64,000 bases of DNA from contig JBKJHW010000046.1 of assembly GCA_046598935.1 (NCBI GenBank), positions 7,071 to 71,070 of the forward strand, in the 5' to 3' direction. Origin of the DNA: Vicinamibacterales bacterium. GTDB taxonomy: Bacteria; Acidobacteriota; Vicinamibacteria; Vicinamibacterales; SCN-69-37. Each line of letters begins with the position of its first letter. The first letter of the stretch is position 1. Shown piece after piece: positions 3,423 through 64,000 of this stretch. The notes beneath the pieces were generated by a model, which saw nothing but the letters and a program-made list of their open reading frames with translations, ran no database searches and was not told the origin of the DNA. The translations under genes and the position numbers were made by a program.

Positions 3423-3767
3423 GGGGGCGACTTGGCTTCGACGGGGGCAAGGGATCGTTGGATGCATGCCGAGCTCCATTGACTCGTTAAACCGATGGAA
3501 AAACCACTAACTGCGAACACGCAGCTAGCCCTCGCGGCCTAACGGCACGCGACGTTCACCCTGACCAGCCTGCGGGTCGGGACTGAATGTCATTTCAGCA
3601 GGCTGGCCCCGGCTCGAGTCCGTGTTGTCGGGGCGAGATTCAGCGGACTAGCGGTCGGCGCTTTCGCCGCACTTATACGTCGATCGCGAAATTTGAAGCA
3701 CGGCTACGCATGTAGATTCTGACGACGACAGGCCTTTCGGACGCGGGTTCGACTCCCGCCGCCTCCA
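3423..3767 (+). ncRNA. ssrA: tmRNA (SsrA)
   Basis: The 5' GGGGGCG pairs with the 3' CGCCTCC, including the G3:U alanine identity pair. The T-arm GGGTTCGACTCCCGC is present. The tag reading frame GCG AAC ACG CAG CTA GCC CTC GCG GCC TAA (3513..3542) encodes ANTQLALAA. CCA is not encoded. Confidence 0.9.
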
Positions 3768-3783
3768 CTTTCTTCTCACTTCG

Positions 3784-15841: not shown

Positions 15842-16864
15842 CTATTCGGCGCGAAGCGCCGCATCCCCAGGCACGAAGTGCGTGAACCCGCCGCCGAGCG
15901 GGCCCTCATCAAGCGTGAGAGGCGGCGCTTTGGTCAGCTCGCCGATGCAGGAGACCGGCGTATGGCGCGCGGCGATCCGCTCGAATCCGCGGCGCCGACG
16001 GGGCGGAACTGCGAACAGCAATTCGTAATCTTCGCCGCCCCGAAGGGCCTGTTCGAGCGTGGCTTCCGGATGCACCGGTACCTTAGAAGAGATGACCGTC
16101 GCGCCAGTGCGCGAGGCTTCTGCTATCTGCGTGACACCGTCAGCCAAACCGTCGGAAAGGTCCATACAGGCCGACGCTAACCGATTCGAGGCAACTTCTC
16201 TCGAGACGTTCAGAAGCAACACAGAGCGTTCGTACGACTTCGCAGGGTGTTCGTACGAGGGTTCGGACGAACCCTCAGAGTGTTCGTACGAACGCTCTGA
16301 TTCGTACGAACCCCCTGGCTCGTACGCACGTCGACGTTCGAGCTCTGCAGCGGCTCGCCCGAGCATCCCTGTGACGTACAGGAGGTGGCCCGCGGATCCT
16401 CCGCTTCTGGTGAGAATGCGGCGCCGGCGCGCGGTGCCGATGAGCGTGATGTCGATGATGATCGGTCCCGGCGAACTCGAGATGTTGCCGCCGATGATCG
16501 TGAGCTTCGCCGATTTCGCCAACGTCAAGAAGCCATCGATGAGCGCGTCGAAATCGTCGAGCGCCAATGCGCCCGGCAGGGCGAGGCTTAACGTCGCCGC
16601 GCGCGGCGACGCGCCCATCGCCGCGAGATCACTGAGGTTGACGGCGAGCGATTTCGCGCCGATCTCGCGCATCGAGTTCCAACGGCGATCAAAGTGCACG
16701 CCTTCGATCTGACAGTCGGTCGTGACGACATCGAGCTCGCCCCGTTCAGGTTCGATCACCGCGGCATCGTCGCCGATGCCGATGTGCACCCATGCGGGCG
16801 CATCGCCGGCGCGTTCGCGGATGCGCTCAATGAGGCCGTGCTCGCCGATGTGGGAGATTTTCAC
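15842..16864 (-). CDS. thiL: thiamine-monophosphate kinase
   Basis: Contains KISHIGEHGLIERIR, IGDDAAVIEP, DLAAMGA and MDLSDGLADG. GTG start. It carries a repeat-derived (S/A)YE-rich insertion, described under the repeats. Confidence 0.85.
   Translation of the reverse strand: MKISHIGEHGLIERIRERAGDAPAWVHIGIGDDAAVIEPERGELDVVTTDCQIEGVHFDRRWNSMREIGAKSLAVNLSDLAAMGASPRAATLSLALPGALALDDFDALIDGFLTLAKSAKLTIIGGNISSSPGPIIIDITLIGTARRRRILTRSGGSAGHLLYVTGMLGRAAAELERRRAYEPGGSYESERSYEHSEGSSEPSYEHPAKSYERSVLLLNVSREVASNRLASACMDLSDGLADGVTQIAEASRTGATVISSKVPVHPEATLEQALRGGEDYELLFAVPPRRRRGFERIAARHTPVSCIGELTKAPPLTLDEGPLGGGFTHFVPGDAALRAE
16222..16327. repeat. nested palindromic repeat inside thiL (five copies of the self-complementary octamer TCGTACGA or a near-copy)
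   Basis: A perfect 16-bp inverted repeat, CAGAGCGTTCGTACGA (16222..16237) with TCGTACGAACGCTCTG (16284..16299). An inner hairpin GAGGGTTC-GGAC-GAACCCTC (16257..16276). TCGTACGA occurs at 16230, 16251, 16284 and 16302, with a degenerate TCGTACGC copy at 16320. Confidence 0.85.
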
Positions 16865-16904
16865 TGGGAGGAATGGTACTGCACCGATTCACGATGATTC
16901 ACTG

Positions 16905-17121
16905 CGATTCACCGTGAATTGAGTGAATGCGGCACTATCGAAGAATCCCGCTTTGCCGTGTGGGGAGGTCGAACGGACCTGTTAGACAGGTGGAACCGCT
17001 ATAAAGACTGCGCTTTAGGCTTCCTCACCACGGAGGCATGCTCACCACGCAGCGTCGCAGCTCGCTTGGTATTAAAAAACATCGGCCCAAGCGACACTCC
17101 AACCATCACGAACAAAGCAGG
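16905..17121 (-). ncRNA. ssrS: 6S RNA (SsrS); ends approximate (+/-15 nt)
   Basis: The minus strand reads ...GGGCCGATGTTTTTTAATACCAAGCGAGCTGCGACGCTGCGTGGTGAGCATGCCTCCGTGGTGAGGAAGCCTAAAGCGCAG.... This parallels E. coli 6S (GAGCCGAUAUUUCAUACCACAAG...GGUGAGCAUGCUCGGUCCGUCCGAGAAGCCUUAAAACUGCG). A closing stem TTCGTGAtggTTGgAGTG / CACTCAAtTCACGg is possible. It lies immediately downstream of zapA, as in E. coli. Confidence 0.7.
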
Positions 17122-17127
17122 AAGACA

Positions 17128-20921: not shown

Positions 20922-21000
20922 GTACGAAAGAAAACGACATCGGGTGTCGTTTCCGCCGTGCGGACCAACGGAAACGACACCCGATGTCGTTTTCTTCTAC
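20922..21000. repeat. family-A composite palindromic element (two inverted AAACGACA-YCGGG-TGTCGTTT hairpins)
   Basis: The sequence is GAAAACGACATCGGGTGTCGTTTCC..N16..GGAAACGACACCCGATGTCGTTTTC. It lies between the pheS start and the DUF4242 stop codon, and the stop codon sits inside the element. Confidence 0.85.
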
Positions 21001-21269
21001 TCGGCCGTCGTCGGATCGATGATCGCGTGCACGCGTGCGACTGAATTGGCGGGGAAGCCGCCTTGCTTCGCGTGCTCGCGGACGGCCTGCTCGTTCGGCG
21101 CGTTGTAGACGCAGTAGATCTTGTTGTCGGTGACGTAGCTGTGCACCCACTGAATCGACGGCCCCATGCCGCTCAGGACGCCGCATGATTTCTGGGAGAT
21201 GCCTTTCAAGTCGGCCGCAGAGAGATTACCGGCACCAGGGATTTCGCGTTCGATGACGTACTTCGGCAT
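20997..21269 (-). CDS. DUF4242 domain-containing protein
   Basis: Sequence MPKYVIEREIPGAGNLSAADLKGISQKSCGVL...IYCVYNAPNEQAVREHA matches the family. Confidence 0.7.
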   Translation of the reverse strand: MPKYVIEREIPGAGNLSAADLKGISQKSCGVLSGMGPSIQWVHSYVTDNKIYCVYNAPNEQAVREHAKQGGFPANSVARVHAIIDPTTAE

Positions 21270-21313
21270 GGCGGTGCTCCTAAGGGGAACGCTGCGATCT
21301 TAACCGCACCCTG

Positions 21314-24848: not shown

Positions 24849-24925
24849 TGGTAGGCACGCACGGACTCGAACCGTGGACCTCCTGCATGTCAAGCAGGCG
24901 CTCTAACCAGCTGAGCTACGCGCCT
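24849..24925 (-). tRNA. tRNA-Val (anticodon GAC), CCA encoded
   Basis: The minus strand folds as AGGCGCG-TA-GCTC-AGCTGGTTA-GAGC-G-CCTGC-TTGACAT-GCAGG-AGGTC-CACGG-TTCGAGT-CCGTG-CGTGCCT-A-CCA. All four stems pair. Confidence 0.9.
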
Positions 24926-28828: not shown

Positions 28829-28898
28829 AAGAATAAACGACATCGGGTGTCGTTTTCGCCCGCATTCCTCGAAAACGACACCCGATGTCGTTTATTCT
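28829..28898. repeat. family-A composite palindromic element
   Basis: The sequence is AAGAATAAACGACATCGGGTGTCGTTTTC..N13..GAAAACGACACCCGATGTCGTTTATTCTT. The outer 14-bp arms are perfect. It lies in the divergent region between the phosphodiesterase gene and ruvX. Confidence 0.85.
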
Positions 28899-28905
28899 TT
28901 TCGCT

Positions 28906-29343: not shown

Positions 29344-30344
29344 TGCTGCGCAGACTCACACTGCTCGCCGTCGTGCTGTGTGTGTGCGGCGCCGGCGGCG
29401 CGTGGTGGGCGTGGAGTCAGTTCGACACGCCGTACCGCGGTTATTCCGATCCTGAAGTGTTTGTCGACCTGCCCACGGGCTCGTCAACGGCGGATATCGC
29501 CGGACGGCTTTCGGCGATGGGCGTCGTTCGCGATCCGCTGATGTTCCGGCTCGCGGTTCGGGCGGCGAAGGCCGACCGGCACTTACAGGCCGGCGAGTAC
29601 CGCTTCTTCGACGCGTCGTCGCCGAATCAAATCATCTCGCGGCTTCGTCGGGGCGACACGTTCAGCCACACCGTCACATTCCCGGAGGGTCTGACGATTC
29701 GCGAGATGGGCGCGATTTTTGAGCGCGAAGGGCTCGGCACCGCGCAGGAGTTCATACGCGCGGCGGCGGATCGAGCGTTGATCGCCGATCTGGATCCGGC
29801 CGCGAAGAACCTCGAAGGCTTTCTTTTTCCGAGCACATATTCGCTGCCGCGCCGCGCAGGCGCCGCCGGCTTCGTGCGCGCGATGGTCAAGGAATTCAGA
29901 AACAATATTTCGGCCGAGCCTCTGCCCGACGGCATCGCATCGTTGCGCGATCTCGTCACGCTCGCGTCGATCATCGAGAAGGAAACTGGAAACTCCGCGG
30001 AACGCGCGACCGTTGCCGCCGTGTACCACAATCGCCTGAGGATCGGCATGCCGCTGCAGTGCGATCCGACGGTGATCTACGCGATGATGCTGCGCGGGCG
30101 CTGGGACGGCAATATCCGCAAGCGCGATCTGCAGATCGATTCGCCGTACAACACCTACAGGTACCCGGGGCTGCCGCCGGGCCCGATCGCCTCACCGGGC
30201 CGCGCGACGCTCGATGCCGCGCGACGTCCGGCCGACGTGAACTATCTCTATTTCGTCAGCCGCAACGACGGCACGCATGTGTTCGCGCGGACGCTCGACG
30301 AACACAATCGAAACGTCCGCGCTTTCCAGAGATTAAGGAATTAA
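29343..30344 (+). CDS. mltG: endolytic murein transglycosylase MltG (YceG-like)
   Basis: Contains a transmembrane anchor, TFPEGLTIREM, ASIIEKETG and QCDPTVIY...YNTYRYPGLPPGPIASPG. Confidence 0.85.
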   Translation: MLRRLTLLAVVLCVCGAGGAWWAWSQFDTPYRGYSDPEVFVDLPTGSSTADIAGRLSAMGVVRDPLMFRLAVRAAKADRHLQAGEYRFFDASSPNQIISRLRRGDTFSHTVTFPEGLTIREMGAIFEREGLGTAQEFIRAAADRALIADLDPAAKNLEGFLFPSTYSLPRRAGAAGFVRAMVKEFRNNISAEPLPDGIASLRDLVTLASIIEKETGNSAERATVAAVYHNRLRIGMPLQCDPTVIYAMMLRGRWDGNIRKRDLQIDSPYNTYRYPGLPPGPIASPGRATLDAARRPADVNYLYFVSRNDGTHVFARTLDEHNRNVRAFQRLRN

Positions 30345-30383
30345 AGTCGGGAGTTAATTTGTAATTAACTCCCGACTTTAATT
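30339..30383. repeat. family-B palindromic element (perfect 21-bp arms)
   Basis: The sequence is AATTAAAGTCGGGAGTTAATT-tgt-AATTAACTCCCGACTTTAATT. It begins at the mltG stop codon. Confidence 0.9.
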
Positions 30384-30452
30384 GTTTCCAGTACGCTCGC
30401 CGCGCCAGCCGGATGGCTGGAAAAGACCAAGAAAGAGCAATTAGCGGCAATT

Positions 30453-30489
30453 AATGTCGGGAGTTAATTGGCAATCAACTCCCGACTTT
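30453..30489. repeat. family-B palindromic element (18-bp arms, 2 mismatches)
   Basis: The sequence is AATGTCGGGAGTTAATTG-g-CAATCAACTCCCGACTTT, about 22 nt beyond the nadK stop. Confidence 0.85.
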
Positions 30490-50171: not shown

Positions 50172-50327
50172 ATGACCTTCTTGAAGAAGCTGTTTGGCAA
50201 GGCCGAACCTCCGAAAACACGGGTCCGCGTCTGCGTGGAATGCGGGATGCCCGTCGCGGAACACAAAGATTGGTGTTCAATTAAGCGGGGCCAGCTCGAA
50301 ATGGAGGGCGCCAGACCCAACCGGTGA
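50172..50327 (+). CDS. small hypothetical protein with a CxxC...C motif
   Basis: 51 aa, MTFLKKLFGKAEPPKTRVRVCVECGMPVAEHKDWC.... The stop overlaps the rsmE GTG start. Support is weak. Confidence 0.35.
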   Translation: MTFLKKLFGKAEPPKTRVRVCVECGMPVAEHKDWCSIKRGQLEMEGARPNR

Positions 50328-51097
50328 ATCTGATTCTTATAGAGCCTGCAGAAGTCAGATCTGACGGGACCGCGCGCATAGCCGGTCCGCAGGCCGATCA
50401 CATCCGGAGAGTCCTCAGGAGTTCTCCCGGCCACGAGCTCCGCGTCGGCGTGATTGATGGTCCCGCCGGGACCGCCACCATCACCGCCGTGACCGACAGT
50501 TTTGTTGAGCTGGCCTGCCGGCTCGATGCTGAACCGCCGCCCCGCCCGGAAGTCGATCTCCTCCTCGCATTGCCTCGACCCAAAGTGATGCGCCGCCTCT
50601 GGGCGCAACTGGCCGCGCTGGGCGTCGGCCGGATCATCCTCACAAACGCAGAACGCGTCGAGCGCGATTACTTCGATACCCACATCCTCGAGCCCGAAAC
50701 CTATCGCTCGCTCCTGATCGAGGGCCTGCAACAGGCGCGCGACACGCGTCTCCCAGTTGTCACCATCCACAAACGGTTCAAAGTGCTGATTGAAGACGAG
50801 TTGGACGCGATGTGCCCTCAGCGCAGGCGCCTCGTCGCCCACCCCGGGAGCCAGCCAGAAATAGGGGTCGGGTGTTATTTCGAAATAACACCCGACCCCT
50901 ATTTCCCCTATTTCCCCGACCCCTATTTCCGCGATTCGCGTACGCTTCTCGCGGTTGGGCCCGAGGGCGGATGGAACGCGTTCGAGTTAGGGATGCTCGA
51001 GGCGCGCGGATTTCGGCCGATCAGCCTCGGTCCCCGATCACTACGGACCGACACGGCGTGTATTGCATTGCTCACGCTCGTTCACACGCGCCCGTAG
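50324..51097 (+). CDS. rsmE: 16S rRNA (uracil1498-N3)-methyltransferase
   Basis: Contains a PUA-like N-terminus (ADHIRRVLRSSPGHELRVGVIDG), LLLALPRPKVMRR and LLAVGPEGGW...LGPRSLRTDTA. It carries a repeat-derived insertion. Confidence 0.8.
   Translation: MNLILIEPAEVRSDGTARIAGPQADHIRRVLRSSPGHELRVGVIDGPAGTATITAVTDSFVELACRLDAEPPPRPEVDLLLALPRPKVMRRLWAQLAALGVGRIILTNAERVERDYFDTHILEPETYRSLLIEGLQQARDTRLPVVTIHKRFKVLIEDELDAMCPQRRRLVAHPGSQPEIGVGCYFEITPDPYFPYFPDPYFRDSRTLLAVGPEGGWNAFELGMLEARGFRPISLGPRSLRTDTACIALLTLVHTRP
50858..50929. repeat. family-C palindromic element inside rsmE (48-nt perfect palindrome plus reiterated arm end)
   Basis: GAAATAGGGGTCGGGTGTTATTTC|GAAATAACACCCGACCCCTATTTC spans 50858..50905. 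It is followed by CCCTATTTC and CCCGACCCCTATTTC. Confidence 0.9.
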
Positions 51098-52467: not shown

Positions 52468-53458
52468 CGTCGGCGTCGCGCAGTTTGCGGCCGACGCGCG
52501 CCACTACCTGACGCAAACCCCGCGTCAGATGGCGTCGCGCTATTTCTACGACGCGCCCGGATCCCGATTGTTCGACGCGATCTGCGAACTGCCGTGGTAT
52601 CGCGTGACGCGCGCCGAGACGGCGCTGCTGCGGCGCCATAATGCCGAGATCCTCCAGCGCGCCGGCTCGCCGTCGCGCATCGTCGAACTCGGCTCAGGCA
52701 GCGGCGCCAAACTCGCTGTGCTCGCCGAAGGAATCCAGTCGACGACGGCGCCGATTGAGTTACATCTGATCGATGTCTCGTCGGCGGCGCTGGCGGCTGC
52801 CGCACGCGCGCTCGATGCGGTGCCGAATGTGGAGATCATCACGCATCACGCGACCTACGAATCCGGGCTCGACGCTGTCAGGGCGAAAAGTCGGGAGTTA
52901 ATTCAATTAACTCCCGACCTTAATTGGCCCTCACAGTCGGCCGGTCTGACGCTGGCGTTGTTTCTCGGGTCCAATATCGGCAACTTCGATCGCGACGCCG
53001 CCGACGCGCTGCTCGTGCGATTGCGCGCCGCGCTCACGCCCGGCGATTCGCTGCTGCTCGGCACGGATCTCGTGAAGCCGGAAGCCGACCTGCTGCTCGC
53101 GTACGACGACCCGCTGGGCGTCACGGCGGCTTTTAATCTGAATCTTTTCGCACGGATGAATCGAGAGCTCGGCGCGACCTTTGCGCTCGACCTTCTCAGG
53201 CACGTCGCTGTCTGGAACGCCGCCGAATCGCGCGTCGAGATGCACGTCGAGGCACGCGCCGAGCACCGCGTGACGGTGCCGGCGGCGGGTCTTGATTTTG
53301 TCCTTGAAGCCGGCGAGCGCATCTGGACAGAGAACTCGCACAAATACACGTCTGTCGACGTTGATCGCATGCTCGATCGCGCGGGCTTTGCCGTGGCTGA
53401 GCGGTGGACCGACGTTGATGCGGGGTTTGCGCTGACGCTGGCGTCGGCGCGGGCCTAG
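52436..53458 (+). CDS. egtD: L-histidine N(alpha)-methyltransferase EgtD-like
   Basis: Contains RYFYDAPGSRLFDAICELPWYRVTRAETALL, VELGSGSGAK and FLGSNIGNF. The ATG at 52436 overlaps the egtB end by 32 nt. Confidence 0.75.
   Translation: MPASVQSPTADVGVAQFAADARHYLTQTPRQMASRYFYDAPGSRLFDAICELPWYRVTRAETALLRRHNAEILQRAGSPSRIVELGSGSGAKLAVLAEGIQSTTAPIELHLIDVSSAALAAAARALDAVPNVEIITHHATYESGLDAVRAKSRELIQLTPDLNWPSQSAGLTLALFLGSNIGNFDRDAADALLVRLRAALTPGDSLLLGTDLVKPEADLLLAYDDPLGVTAAFNLNLFARMNRELGATFALDLLRHVAVWNAAESRVEMHVEARAEHRVTVPAAGLDFVLEAGERIWTENSHKYTSVDVDRMLDRAGFAVAERWTDVDAGFALTLASARA
52886..52925. repeat. family-B palindromic element inside egtD
   Basis: AAGTCGGGAGTTAATT-c-AATTAACTCCCGACCT followed by TAATT. 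It is translated in-frame as KSRELIQLTPDLNW. Confidence 0.9.
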
Positions 53459-56224: not shown

Positions 56225-56572
56225 CTACGCGACGGCCAGCACGAACTCGACCTTCACCGCCTCGTACGGAAACACGATGCGGCCATCGTCGGTGCGATCA
56301 AGCACGCCGGCCGTGAGTAACGCGGAGACGTCGCCATGCACGGCTTTGACATCGCGATCGAGCCGGCGCGCGGCTTCTCGAATGGACACCGGCCCCGCAC
56401 CACTCAACGCCTTGAGCAGGTCCAGGCGTTTCGCAGTCAGAACCCGCCACAGCAACTCTGGCGACGCAAAACTGATGCGCGCGGATTTGCCGGCCTTGCC
56501 GCTCTTCCACACGCGGACGAAGTCCCGCATCGCAGTGCCTGGCGTTTGGACGTCAAGGGTGACGGTTTTCAC
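56225..56572 (-). CDS. HTH DNA-binding protein, putative antitoxin partner of the DUF6516/TumE-like toxin
   Basis: The winged-helix-like segment LTAKRLDLLKALSGAGPVSIREAARRLDRDVKAVHGDVSALLTAGVL is present. It overlaps the upstream gene by 20 nt. Confidence 0.6.
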   Translation of the reverse strand: MKTVTLDVQTPGTAMRDFVRVWKSGKAGKSARISFASPELLWRVLTAKRLDLLKALSGAGPVSIREAARRLDRDVKAVHGDVSALLTAGVLDRTDDGRIVFPYEAVKVEFVLAVA

Positions 56573-56849
56573 GGTTCCACCTCGCTATGTCGGCCTGAAA
56601 GTCGGCGACCAACTTCTCCGGGGTATCGAATATGTAGCGACGTTCCCTGGCGTTGAAGTGCCGGTGGTCGCCCTTGCCCGCTTCGTTGTCATAGCGAACG
56701 ACGCACGTGCCGTTGACGACATAGGCGAGGCGATATTTGAACGGGTGGATCGATCCTGGAACCGGCTTCGGGACGCGCCACAGCACCAACTCCGCGAACG
56801 CGACTTCCGACAACGCCAGCCTCGTGTGAAGCAGCGTTGTCGCCCTCAT
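56553..56849 (-). CDS. DUF6516 (TumE-like) toxin-antitoxin system protein
   Basis: Contains KYRLAYVVNGTCVVRYDNEAGKGDHRHFNARERRYIF. The track start is 56861. The ATG at 56849 is preferred because 56861 lies inside the predicted -10 box. Confidence 0.6.
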   Translation of the reverse strand: MRATTLLHTRLALSEVAFAELVLWRVPKPVPGSIHPFKYRLAYVVNGTCVVRYDNEAGKGDHRHFNARERRYIFDTPEKLVADFQADIARWNRENRHP

Positions 56850-56856
56850 GTTGGAG

Positions 56857-56886
56857 ATCATGCCAACAGTGAGCCTGTGTTGTCAA
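56857..56886 (-). promoter_or_regulatory. candidate promoter TTGACA-N18-CATGAT giving a leaderless TumE-like mRNA
   Basis: The minus strand reads TTGACAacacaggctcactgttggCATGATctccaacATG. The -35 is perfect, and there are 7 nt between the -10 and the ATG at 56849. Confidence 0.45.
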
Positions 56887-61235: not shown

Positions 61236-61652
61236 TTACGCGGCCGCGTCGCTCACGCGAACGAGTCTGCTGCGGCTGGCGTAGTCGATGATCTGGCGAT
61301 CGCGCGTGACGAGCGGCACGTCGTACGCGCGCGCGCTGGCGACGAGCATCCGATCAACCGGATCACCGAGCGCGGACGAGGGAATCTGGCCGGCGTCGAT
61401 CGCGATATCCATGTCGATGCCGACGACACGCAGGCTGCCGCGGGTCACGGAGTCGCGAATCCATTTTTCCGCTGATTGATTCAGGCGGAGCCGGCCCGCA
61501 GTGGCGAGCGCCGTGATCTCAAATACCGAGGCCGTCGTGACGAGCAGGGTGCCTGCAGCGGCAGCGCGCGCGATGAGGCGGCGAGTCTTGGGCCCCAGTT
61601 TTCCCGGCTCGTCAGCTGCGGCCCAGATCCAAGCGTGCGTGTCGAGCAACAT
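61236..61652 (-). CDS. vapC: type II toxin-antitoxin system VapC family toxin (PIN domain)
   Basis: Contains MLLDTHAWIW (N-terminal Asp), FEITALA, DPVDRMLVASA and LVTRD. Confidence 0.85.
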   Translation of the reverse strand: MLLDTHAWIWAAADEPGKLGPKTRRLIARAAAAGTLLVTTASVFEITALATAGRLRLNQSAEKWIRDSVTRGSLRVVGIDMDIAIDAGQIPSSALGDPVDRMLVASARAYDVPLVTRDRQIIDYASRSRLVRVSDAAA

Positions 61653-61658
61653 GGCGCG

Positions 61659-61931
61659 TCAGTCGGTCTCGCCGGCGGACGCGTTCACGTGCCACGCGCC
61701 GGGCACCGGCTCAAACGGCGCGTCGTACCCGAGCACCGATCCCGTCATCGATCCGATGAACGTCGTCGAAGCCTTCCGCTCGACCGGCACCAGTCGCGCC
61801 ATAGGCCGGCCATGCCGCGTGACGACGTATTCGGCTCGTGCCTCGCTGACGTGATCGATCAGCTCGAGGCACCGGGCCTTGAAATCCGCCGAGCCGACGT
61901 CGCCCCGTGGCGTATCCCGTTTCTTTGACAT
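61659..61931 (-). CDS. Phd/YefM-type antitoxin
   Basis: Contains DFKARCLELIDHVSEARAEYVVTRHGRPMARLVPV. The ATG at 61931 is preferred. A -10 TATAAT (minus strand, 61946..61941) lies 9 nt upstream. Confidence 0.7.
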   Translation of the reverse strand: MSKKRDTPRGDVGSADFKARCLELIDHVSEARAEYVVTRHGRPMARLVPVERKASTTFIGSMTGSVLGYDAPFEPVPGAWHVNASAGETD

Positions 61932-61940
61932 GACTAGAAT

Positions 61941-61946
61941 ATTATA
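61941..61946 (-). promoter_or_regulatory. candidate -10 box (GCTATAAT) for the phd-vapC operon
   Basis: The minus strand reads ttGCTATAATattctagtcATG. Confidence 0.45.
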
Positions 61947-62115
61947 GCAATAAATGGCTGTCGGGATCAGTTCGCGCGATCTTAGTAGTTGGCAGGCAAG
62001 TTGGCGGTCATTTCCATCACGCTCGTCATGGAACCGGTCGAAGGCGAAGACGTGTCCGCGCACATCGAGCGCGGCGCGGGGCTGCGTTTGTCACTGACGC
62101 CCGACGGCAAGAGCC

Positions 62116-63722: not shown

Positions 63723-64000
63723 ATGAGCCTGGCCCCCGGCATCCGCCTCGGTCCCTACGAAATCGTCGCGCCCATCGGCGCGGGCGGGATGGGCGAGGTC
63801 TATCGCGCGAAAGACACAAACCTCAACCGCGACGTCGCGCTGAAAATTCTGCCGGAGTCGTTCGCGCTTGATGCCGATCGTGTCGCGCGGTTCAAACGCG
63901 AAGCGCAGGTGCTCGCGTCGCTGAATCATCCGAACATCGCCGCGATCTACGCGGTGGAAACGACACCCGATGTCGTTTCCACCGCCCTCGTCATGGAACT
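63723..64000 (+). CDS. Ser/Thr protein kinase, 3'-partial (continues beyond the window)
   Basis: Sequence MSLAPGIRLGPYEIVAPIGAGGMGEVYRAKDTNLNRDVALKILP...LNHPNIAAIY.... A GCTATACT -10 box at 63707..63712 lies 10 nt upstream of the ATG. Confidence 0.8.
   Translation, partial: MSLAPGIRLGPYEIVAPIGAGGMGEVYRAKDTNLNRDVALKILPESFALDADRVARFKREAQVLASLNHPNIAAIYAVETTPDVVSTALVME
63956..63980. repeat. family-A single hairpin inside the kinase CDS
   Basis: GGAAACGACA-CCCGA-TGTCGTTTCC forms a 10-bp stem. It is translated in-frame as (V)ETTPDVVS. Confidence 0.85.

Follow-up and report, generated by a model that had tools for sequence, protein, structure and literature searches.

The perfect palindrome that lies in frame within the rsmE gene of a 64-kb stretch of contig JBKJHW010000046.1 (hereafter the window, meaning the whole stretch analysed) is best explained as a REPIN, that is, a doublet of two inverted hairpin units resembling repetitive extragenic palindromic (REP) sequences, of a family spread by a REP-associated tyrosine transposase (RAYT). 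We put the probability of this reading at about 0.82. An earlier note on the same DNA had described a perfect 48-nt palindrome at 50858-50905, followed by two partial reiterations and translated as part of rsmE; the sequence and the open reading frame (ORF) agree with that description, and the element, which had gone unrecognised, can now be placed in a RAYT-associated REP-doublet family. The two arms (Table 1) are 24 nt each, with 100% complementarity and a spacer of 0 nt. The left arm has the layout GAAATA-GGGGTCGGGTGT-TATTTC and can fold on itself via a 6-bp stem, and the CCC GAC of the right arm reads as Pro-Asp. Directly after the right arm, CCCTATTTC is found at 50906-50914 and CCCGACCCCTATTTC at 50915-50929; Tandem Repeats Finder scored these reiterations as arrays of 9 nt (x2.4) and 15 nt (x2.0), and they are most likely slippage products at the hairpin. 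The complete 72-nt block opens at codon 179 of the rsmE ORF and codes for EIGVGCYFEITPDPYFPYFPDPYF, the peptide stretch predicted from the ORF for the insert region being EIGVGCYFEITPDPYF. By our own arithmetic, about 1e-9 perfect palindromes of 24 bp would be expected in 64 kb at 64.5% GC, and chance is therefore no explanation for it. The minimum-free-energy structure of the element was one single hairpin, with energies of -39.2 kcal/mol for RNA (z=-7.5) and -26.7 kcal/mol for DNA (z=-9.2), and in both calculations 0 of 200 shuffles folded equally well.

An inverted-repeat scan of the window revealed seven sites of the family, which have a common build: an AT-rich self-complementary stem around TCGGG, a short spacer, and the reverse complement with CCCGA. 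These sites comprise family A (AAACGACA-TCGGG-TGTCGTTT), family B (AATTAA-AGTCGGGAG-TTAATT) and family C, the rsmE copy; the unit stems of families A and B measure 6-15 bp. Hairpins with an AT-rich stem and a TCGGG or CCCGA loop occurred 10 times in the window versus 4 times for ten control pentamers combined, and 0 were found in about 370 kb of distant relatives. The family-A doublet at 20928..20996 directly adjoins the stop codon of the minus-strand gene 20997-21299 and is located upstream of pheS, and the one at 28829..28899 is located between a divergent phosphodiesterase-family gene and ruvX, just upstream of the ribosome-binding site of the minus-strand gene. Three of the seven sites (rsmE, egtD and a Ser/Thr protein kinase gene) are in-frame copies inside genes. 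The kinase copy codes for AVETTPDVVSTA in the loop that follows HPNIAAIY of the kinase domain. A scan of the whole window with Rfam at gathering thresholds returned tmRNA, 6S RNA and one tRNA only, with no match on the hairpins. Two regulatory candidates were rejected: a regulator operator site, because the stems vary and copies have been gained inside ORFs, and an intrinsic terminator, because the stems are AT-rich, no T tract is present and copies lie inside genes.

Table 1. Coordinates and architecture of the rsmE element, of the other family sites in the window, and of the corresponding elements at rsmE sites and RAYT genes of related contigs.
Feature	Position or locus	Strand	Sequence or architecture	Context
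rsmE (16S rRNA m3U1498 methyltransferase family)	50324..51097	+	intact ORF, 257 aa	hosts element
REPIN left arm (REP unit, TCGGG core)	50858..50881	+	GAAATAGGGGTCGGGTGTTATTTC	rsmE
REPIN right arm (REP unit, CCCGA core)	50882..50905	+	GAAATAACACCCGACCCCTATTTC, exact reverse complement of left arm	rsmE
Two partial tandem reiterations of right-arm end	50906..50929	+	24 nt = 8 codons	rsmE
Family C doublet	50858..50929		24-nt arms, no spacer	in rsmE
Family A doublet	20928..20996		28-nt perfect arms, 13-nt spacer	intergenic
Family A doublet	28829..28899		30-nt perfect arms, 11-nt spacer	intergenic
Family B doublet	30339..30383		AATTAAAGTCGGGAGTTAATT tgt AATTAACTCCCGACTTTAATT; 21-nt arms, 3-nt spacer	intergenic
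Family B single unit	30448..30470		CAATTAA-TGTCGGGAG-TTAATTG	same intergenic region as 30339..30383
Family B doublet	52886..52930	+	AAAAGTCGGGAGTTAATT C AATTAACTCCCGACCTTAATTGGCCC; 17-nt arms (94% complementary), 1-nt spacer	in egtD
Family A single unit	63951..63985	+	GCGGTGGAAACGACA CCCGA TGTCGTTTCCACCGC; 15-bp stem	in Ser/Thr protein kinase ORF
Family A element	L028		CAGAAACGACGTCGGGTGTCGTTTT tcgc + reverse complement; 25/25	rsmE site
Family A element	L026		L028 type; 18/18	rsmE site
Element with right unit intact	L022		GAAATGAG-TCCCGAT-CTCATTTC	rsmE site
Doublet	L027		GGAAAAGAG-ATCGGGA-CTCTTTTCC … GGAAAAGAG-TCCCGAT-CTCTTTTC; 25-nt spacer	rsmE site
Rearranged form of element	L024			rsmE site
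Flanking arm, family A	L077, L078, L063, L048			RAYT gene
Flanking arm	L079		AAAACGAGATCGGGACTCATTTC (right arm GAAATGAGTCCCGATCTCGTTTT); unit stem partial only	RAYT gene
Flanking arm	L080		AAAGGACATCGGGAGTCGTTT	RAYT gene

A cognate transposase was identified in related contigs. All fetched ORFs were screened for an HUH…Y signature, and exactly two candidates (L063 and L048) were obtained, both of which adjoin family-A doublets. Their ORFs contain the motif AYC(L/V)MPNHFH and match PF01797 (Y1_Tnp) with E=6e-10 and 1e-9, corresponding to 39-40 bits against a gathering cut-off of 23 bits; the HFH motif and the conserved Tyr in CRYVEAN are present in RAYT-like proteins. A homology search with the RAYT yielded 699 relatives, among which the few named ones come from metagenome-assembled genomes of Acidobacteria or carry a JGI label as RAYT. 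When four further contigs (L077-L080) were considered together with these two, the gene, which encodes a protein of about 225 aa, was directly flanked by TCGGG…CCCGA doublets in all six loci, on both sides wherever both flanks were visible; in L063, for example, it is bracketed by two doublets. The sequence of the flanking arms differs with the RAYT lineage (Table 1). This arrangement is that of a REPIN-RAYT system. The same arms were also found at the rsmE site, as family A occurs in the rsmE genes of L026 and L028 and flanks the RAYT gene in L077, L078, L063 and L048, and the rsmE insert of L022 (GAAATGAGTCCCGATCTCATTTC) matches the right arm of the L079 REPtron (GAAATGAGTCCCGATCTCGTTTT).

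The doublets are also part of the transposase gene itself. In four of five RAYT genes, the left arm of the downstream doublet codes for the C-terminus (…GRPKKTTSGVVS/F*), and the stop codon falls within the spacer. The C-terminal sequence …GRP(K/R)KTTSGVV(S/F) is located at 10590-10631 in L077, 2660-2698 in L078, 10645-10681 in L080 and 1225-1259 in L063. The RAYT locus is syntenic in L077 and L078, which suggests that it has been inherited vertically as a single copy. We also observed that a TGGCAR-N5-TTGWA motif is conserved between the upstream doublet and the RAYT start codon (L077 9917-9947, L063 545-566, L079 5252-5280, L080 9971-10000 and L048 5266-5290); judged by its sequence, it resembles a sigma-54 -24/-12 promoter and may be one.

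The gain of a copy was observed in egtD. The window egtD gene (PF10017) contains a 45-nt in-frame block at 52886-52930, coding for KSRELIQLTPDLNWP, and this block is absent from all five syntenic orthologues, which therefore represent empty sites. This is a clean filled-versus-empty comparison for a family-B doublet. According to our own reading of the sequence, one of the three forward frames of family B is free of stop codons, and it is this frame that is used in egtD because no other forward frame is free of them. Presence and absence thus provide evidence of mobility at two genes, namely the egtD insert with its five empty orthologues and the rsmE insert, which is absent at <=66% identity.

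To place the rsmE insertion among its relatives, we compared RsmE proteins and the DNA of five syntenic loci with the gene order rsmE-egtB-egtD. The closest RsmE proteins (67-80% identity) all have a variable segment at the insert position with the pattern ..G..F-x-E..PD.., whereas orthologues at <=66% identity have a short unrelated loop there instead. The block is thus an insertion relative to RsmE at large, as the earlier note had proposed, and the distant orthologues do not carry the same-length segment without palindromic DNA that the note had named as contrary evidence. A scan of genome contigs with RsmE recovered only relatives at <=61% identity, all of them without the element. In all five syntenic loci, a hairpin element with the TCGGG…CCCGA core was found at exactly the rsmE site, with differing stems, and the reading frame was kept everywhere. 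Because homologous palindromic elements occupy this site in all close syntenic orthologues, it has been filled since the ancestor of the clade. The insertion is thus old, at variance with the recent event supposed before, and it is only the perfect symmetry that is 'young'.

The independent assemblies also bear on the possibility that the palindrome is a fold-back chimera produced by assembly or sequencing and that the real gene lacks it or is disrupted, a contingency that had been raised for this gene. The window is indeed derived from a metagenome-assembled contig, and some artefacts of amplification or long-read sequencing can give rise to palindromes. Nevertheless, related palindromes, likewise in frame, are present at this codon position in five independent assemblies (ENA, JGI and Logan) that stem from different samples and pipelines, the frame is preserved and the other copies in the window are equally regular, which makes an artefact scarcely credible.

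The stems and peptides at the rsmE site were not conserved among the relatives. The insert peptide closest to that of the window was found in P0005, and the insert peptide of the P0017 RsmE (NEIGTRFSETSPDLV) was identical to an insert in the unrelated FdhD gene of L064. Strict inheritance of the stem type along the RsmE tree was not supported, as the TSGVV/KTTPDVV type appeared in two separate places of a neighbour-joining tree that is weakly resolved. The identity between the P0017 and FdhD inserts and the untidy fit of the stem types to the tree are better accounted for by turnover, or by replacement with dispersed variants, than by slow divergence alone. In addition, the 25-nt spacer gttcgccct(t/c)cgggactcacgggca is nearly identical in L027 (658-682) and L049 (12074-12098, reverse-complemented), in doublets whose stems are different; this common spacer suggests a longer, full-length form of the element.

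Occupation of the site throughout the clade could also be understood if the hairpin were a functional cis-element selected in rsmE, working as RNA or DNA (for example by pausing translation, by affecting the stability or processing of the mRNA, or as a cruciform that binds a protein), with a merely secondary likeness to dispersed repeats. The (near-)perfect symmetry in spite of different stems (24/24 in the window, 25/25 in L028 and 18/18 in L026) and the very high stability of the hairpin as RNA would fit such a role. However, the left arm is degraded or rearranged in L022, L024 and L027, yet rsmE is intact in these loci, and P0011 and P0012 carry truncated versions of the insert. The same elements are moreover present between genes, inside unrelated genes and beside RAYT genes, and neither an Rfam match nor conservation of peptide or stem sequence speaks for a selected structure. 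We consider a cis-acting role very improbable and retain the assignment to a RAYT-spread REPIN family.

The dispersal of this family was assessed by a single metagenome scan in which a family-A unit served as the query, and 48 loci from soil and rhizosphere were recovered. In the window, the orthologous loci and the scan loci together, 45 doublets were counted, whose perfect arms measured 14-30 nt and whose spacers measured 0-25 nt. Wherever these copies differed, the variable position was always mirrored in the partner arm. After the four additional RAYT contigs were included, 58 doublets had the polarity TCGGG→CCCGA and 3 were reversed. Rough coding calls based on GC at third codon positions (GC3) placed most copies in intergenic DNA and a minority in frame in ORFs. 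Hosts of in-frame copies outside the window that were verified with Pfam are FdhD/NarQ, a PMT_2 glycosyltransferase and an ORF combining MeaB with a glyoxalase. In the last case (L044 28-927), one open frame joins the C-terminal part of the MeaB GTPase to a glyoxalase/epimerase domain through the REPIN-encoded linker MTSGVVFRSAEGARKTTPDVV, and the element may have fused two adjacent genes. A family-A single unit with a 23-bp perfect stem (ATGGCAGAAACTGCAAAACGACA TCGGG TGTCGTTTTGCAGTTTCTGCCAT) was identical in two large contigs, at 1538-1588 of L036 and 6544-6594 of L065.

Mirrored variation of this kind would also arise if palindromes were made locally, without transposition, by template switching or by fold-back synthesis where the loop-coding DNA already held a quasi-palindrome, with subsequent slippage. 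The arms are perfect while the copies differ from one another, the partial tandem reiterations in rsmE abut the right arm, and, in our own reading, the rsmE insert of L022 can be obtained from the L027 form through a deletion between TCGGGACTC direct repeats. A local origin nonetheless leaves unexplained why the same core and polarity are found at dozens of unrelated loci and beside RAYT genes, and how egtD came by a clean gain of 45 nt. As the origin of the palindrome we regard it as very improbable; local template switching is better seen as upkeep of arm symmetry after insertion, and as such it is already a part of the REPIN explanation.

The rsmE product was analyzed to assess the consequences of the insert. 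The ORF matches PF04452 (E=1.3e-30) and the PUA_4 domain (PF20260), and its product matches RsmE sequences in the PDB. An AlphaFold2 model built from an alignment of 38 sequences had a mean predicted local distance difference test (pLDDT) score of 87.8 and a predicted template modeling (pTM) score of 0.84, and Foldseek superposed it on solved RsmE structures with a template modeling (TM) score of about 0.7. Residues ~179-202 of the model have a pLDDT of about 49 and no secondary structure; this low-confidence coil sits between the strands 168-172 and 207-211, and the rest of the SPOUT fold is predicted with confidence. The end of the block lies 8 codons ahead of LLAVGPEGGW, the knot motif that binds S-adenosylmethionine (SAM), so the placement just before the knot given in the earlier note is correct, as is its statement that the gene stays open: the ORF is intact and all 65 invariant alignment columns of the RsmE family are kept in the window protein. 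Of the tolerated surface loop of ~25 aa that the note had envisaged, the loop appears in the model as a coil of 24 residues, and its tolerance is what the model would predict. The insert is therefore modeled as a surface loop of 24 extra residues ahead of the knot that the enzyme probably tolerates, and it is presumably translated and harmless. A 51-aa ORF (MTFLKKLFGKAEPPKTRVRVCVECGMPVAEHKDWCSIKRGQLEMEGARPNR) at 50175-50327 on the plus strand overlaps the start of rsmE by 4 nt. A 51-aa gene was also called at the same place in the syntenic L022, L023 and L026 and in the P0005 contig, and no Pfam family is on record for the ORF.

Several observations weigh against the assignment of the rsmE palindrome to a RAYT-spread family. 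The earlier note had proposed a search for other family-C copies; neither the window nor any of the 80 fetched loci contained a second copy of the exact family-C arm, and the relatives differ in stem. The membership of the rsmE copy is based on the common core, the architecture and the positional homology with orthologous inserts. No transposase or RAYT was detected among the about 50 Pfam-annotated ORFs of the window, and the cognate enzyme of this genome is unseen. The best NCBIfam match of the RAYT proteins from the related contigs was NF047646, 'REP-associated tyrosine transposase', with 71-75 bits, which is under the equivalog cut-off of 80 bits. No target-site duplication was seen at the egtD copy or the intergenic copies, although the empty-site flanks are too diverged for certainty. 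We also tried to place the units in the two tagged REP superfamilies, and both were rejected: no GTAG is present at either end of any listed arm, and the terminal tag of the CGTC superfamily is absent. Finally, the symmetry is 24/24 in an insert as old as the clade, where decay would be expected. A plain 'insert and drift' account is therefore incomplete, and the perfect symmetry of the old insert means that an extra renewal process is needed.

With these points taken into account, the REPIN explanation would run as follows. A single-copy RAYT of the Y1/HUH type would spread the family via single-stranded DNA hairpin intermediates: the units would fold in single-stranded DNA, the RAYT would cut and rejoin them, and copies would be dispersed, by analogy with Y1 enzymes of the IS200/IS605 type and with known RAYTs. 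One copy would have been inserted into the variable rsmE loop at the time of the ancestor of an uncultured, probably acidobacterial, soil clade, and it would have survived because its length was a multiple of three, it was free of stop codons in that frame and it lay in a surface loop. More generally, intragenic insertions would persist only if they are in frame, stop-free and in tolerant loops. The rsmE copy would have stayed in place since then and kept evolving, with slippage at the hairpin adding the two partial reiterations. The complementarity of the arms may have been kept or restored by arm-to-arm template switching or fold-back repair, by conversion from other copies, or by re-insertion; both the transposition chemistry and the route of symmetry renewal are proposals.

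A more far-reaching version of this explanation, which we put forward tentatively and regard as rather doubtful, is that the rsmE copy is no passive relic but has been retained at one codon position throughout the history of the clade and repeatedly rewritten, staying perfect and tracking the current REPIN variant of each genome through RAYT-dependent conversion, re-insertion or arm-to-arm correction, and that the RAYT group recognises the internal TCGGG core, not a GTAG tag, and has a REPIN-encoded C-terminus. If true, intragenic REPINs would be long-lived elements whose active maintenance supplies free-living soil bacteria with variation in protein loops.

Other features of the window were also recorded. 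These include a tmRNA at 3423-3770 (tag ANTQLALAA), a 6S RNA at 16941-17126 and a tRNA-Val(GAC) at 24849-24925, as well as two toxin-antitoxin-like pairs, one at 56228-56882 with a TumE toxin and an HVO_A0114-family partner and the other at 61239-62090 with a PIN-domain toxin and a Phd/YefM antitoxin. Another palindromic repeat, TTCGTACGAA, occurs about 6 times in frame at 16200-16330, within the minus-strand ORF 15845-16888. Its host is a thiamine-monophosphate kinase gene (ThiL-like, with AIRS domains), in which it reads as six copies of SYE (…GGSYESERSYEHSEGSSEPSYEHPAKSYERS…) between the N- and C-terminal domains; a solved ThiL structure aligns on both sides of this segment and not across it.

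The significance of the family lies mainly in its intragenic copies. Selfish DNA inside protein-coding genes is best known from Rickettsia, and the present family extends it to high-GC free-living soil bacteria with an identifiable tyrosine transposase. RsmE and EgtD have gained loops of 15-24 residues from it, and a protein kinase has gained an apparent loop segment; in related contigs it likewise added segments to FdhD and a glycosyltransferase. For annotation, the family explains odd low-complexity loops and perfect palindromes in conserved genes of this clade. The rsmE site can be regarded as a dated natural experiment, with one site, many lineages and both arms visible, in which symmetry, decay and replacement would be directly measurable.

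The closest known counterpart is the REPIN-RAYT system, whose REPtron layout was described by Bertels and Rainey (2011, PMC3116915) and which was treated further by Bertels et al. (2017, PMC5581495). For REPINs, folding into either one long hairpin or a 'clover' has been described, together with compensatory changes (PMC3116915). As in that system, the elements described here are inverted doublets of hairpin-forming REP units with a short spacer, dispersed in multiple copies; a long hairpin or a two-hairpin 'clover' is possible, with compensatory changes across the hairpin; a Y1/HUH transposase gene is flanked by cognate doublets; and each unit is a small (imperfect) palindrome, as seen in the GAAATA/TATTTC stem of the rsmE copy. 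Unlike that system, they have an internal polar TCGGG/CCCGA core as the conserved part in place of the GTAG tag, very short spacers of 0-25 nt and, as a rule, perfect arms; the downstream REPIN supplies the codons for the C-terminus of the RAYT, and a sizeable share of the copies lies in frame in genes. The host here is a probable acidobacterium and not a gamma-proteobacterium.

CGTC-tagged REPs have an unpaired terminal CGTC (or TGTC/CCTC), an 8-9-bp stem starting with A/T pairs, a 4-5-nt loop and a CCA tail (Di Nocera et al. 2013, PMC3733652). The family-A units, which have an 8-bp stem starting with A/T pairs and a 5-nt loop, are similar, but they have neither a terminal tag nor a CCA tail; CGTC is confined to the interior of the 'G' variants of family A and is base-paired there within the doublet, and the rsmE copy has neither CGTC nor the CCA tail. 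Acidobacterial tyrosine transposases (TIRYT, in TIRtrons) are flanked by self-complementary repeats that form small dimer families (PMC3733652), an arrangement close to the one found here when compared by its published description. As summarised in PMC10969869 from Ogata et al. (2000, 2002), Rickettsia palindromic elements (RPEs) are palindromic repeats of about 100-150 bp that occur in frame in ORFs, in the reduced genomes of obligate intracellular alpha-proteobacteria. Compared by that description, RPEs and the present elements are both palindromic mobile repeats in frame in housekeeping genes that contribute a tolerated added peptide segment, whereas the elements here are 45-72 nt long, belong to another host lineage and have a cognate transposase in related contigs. 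A classical miniature inverted-repeat transposable element (MITE) has terminal inverted repeats derived from an insertion sequence (IS) and target-site duplications, while the element here is an inverted repeat throughout. Intragenic REP dimers coding for 20-30 aa are already known and in some cases occupy the same position in related species (PMC3733652); less common are the internal polar core, the REPIN-encoded transposase C-terminus and the high share of in-frame copies observed here.

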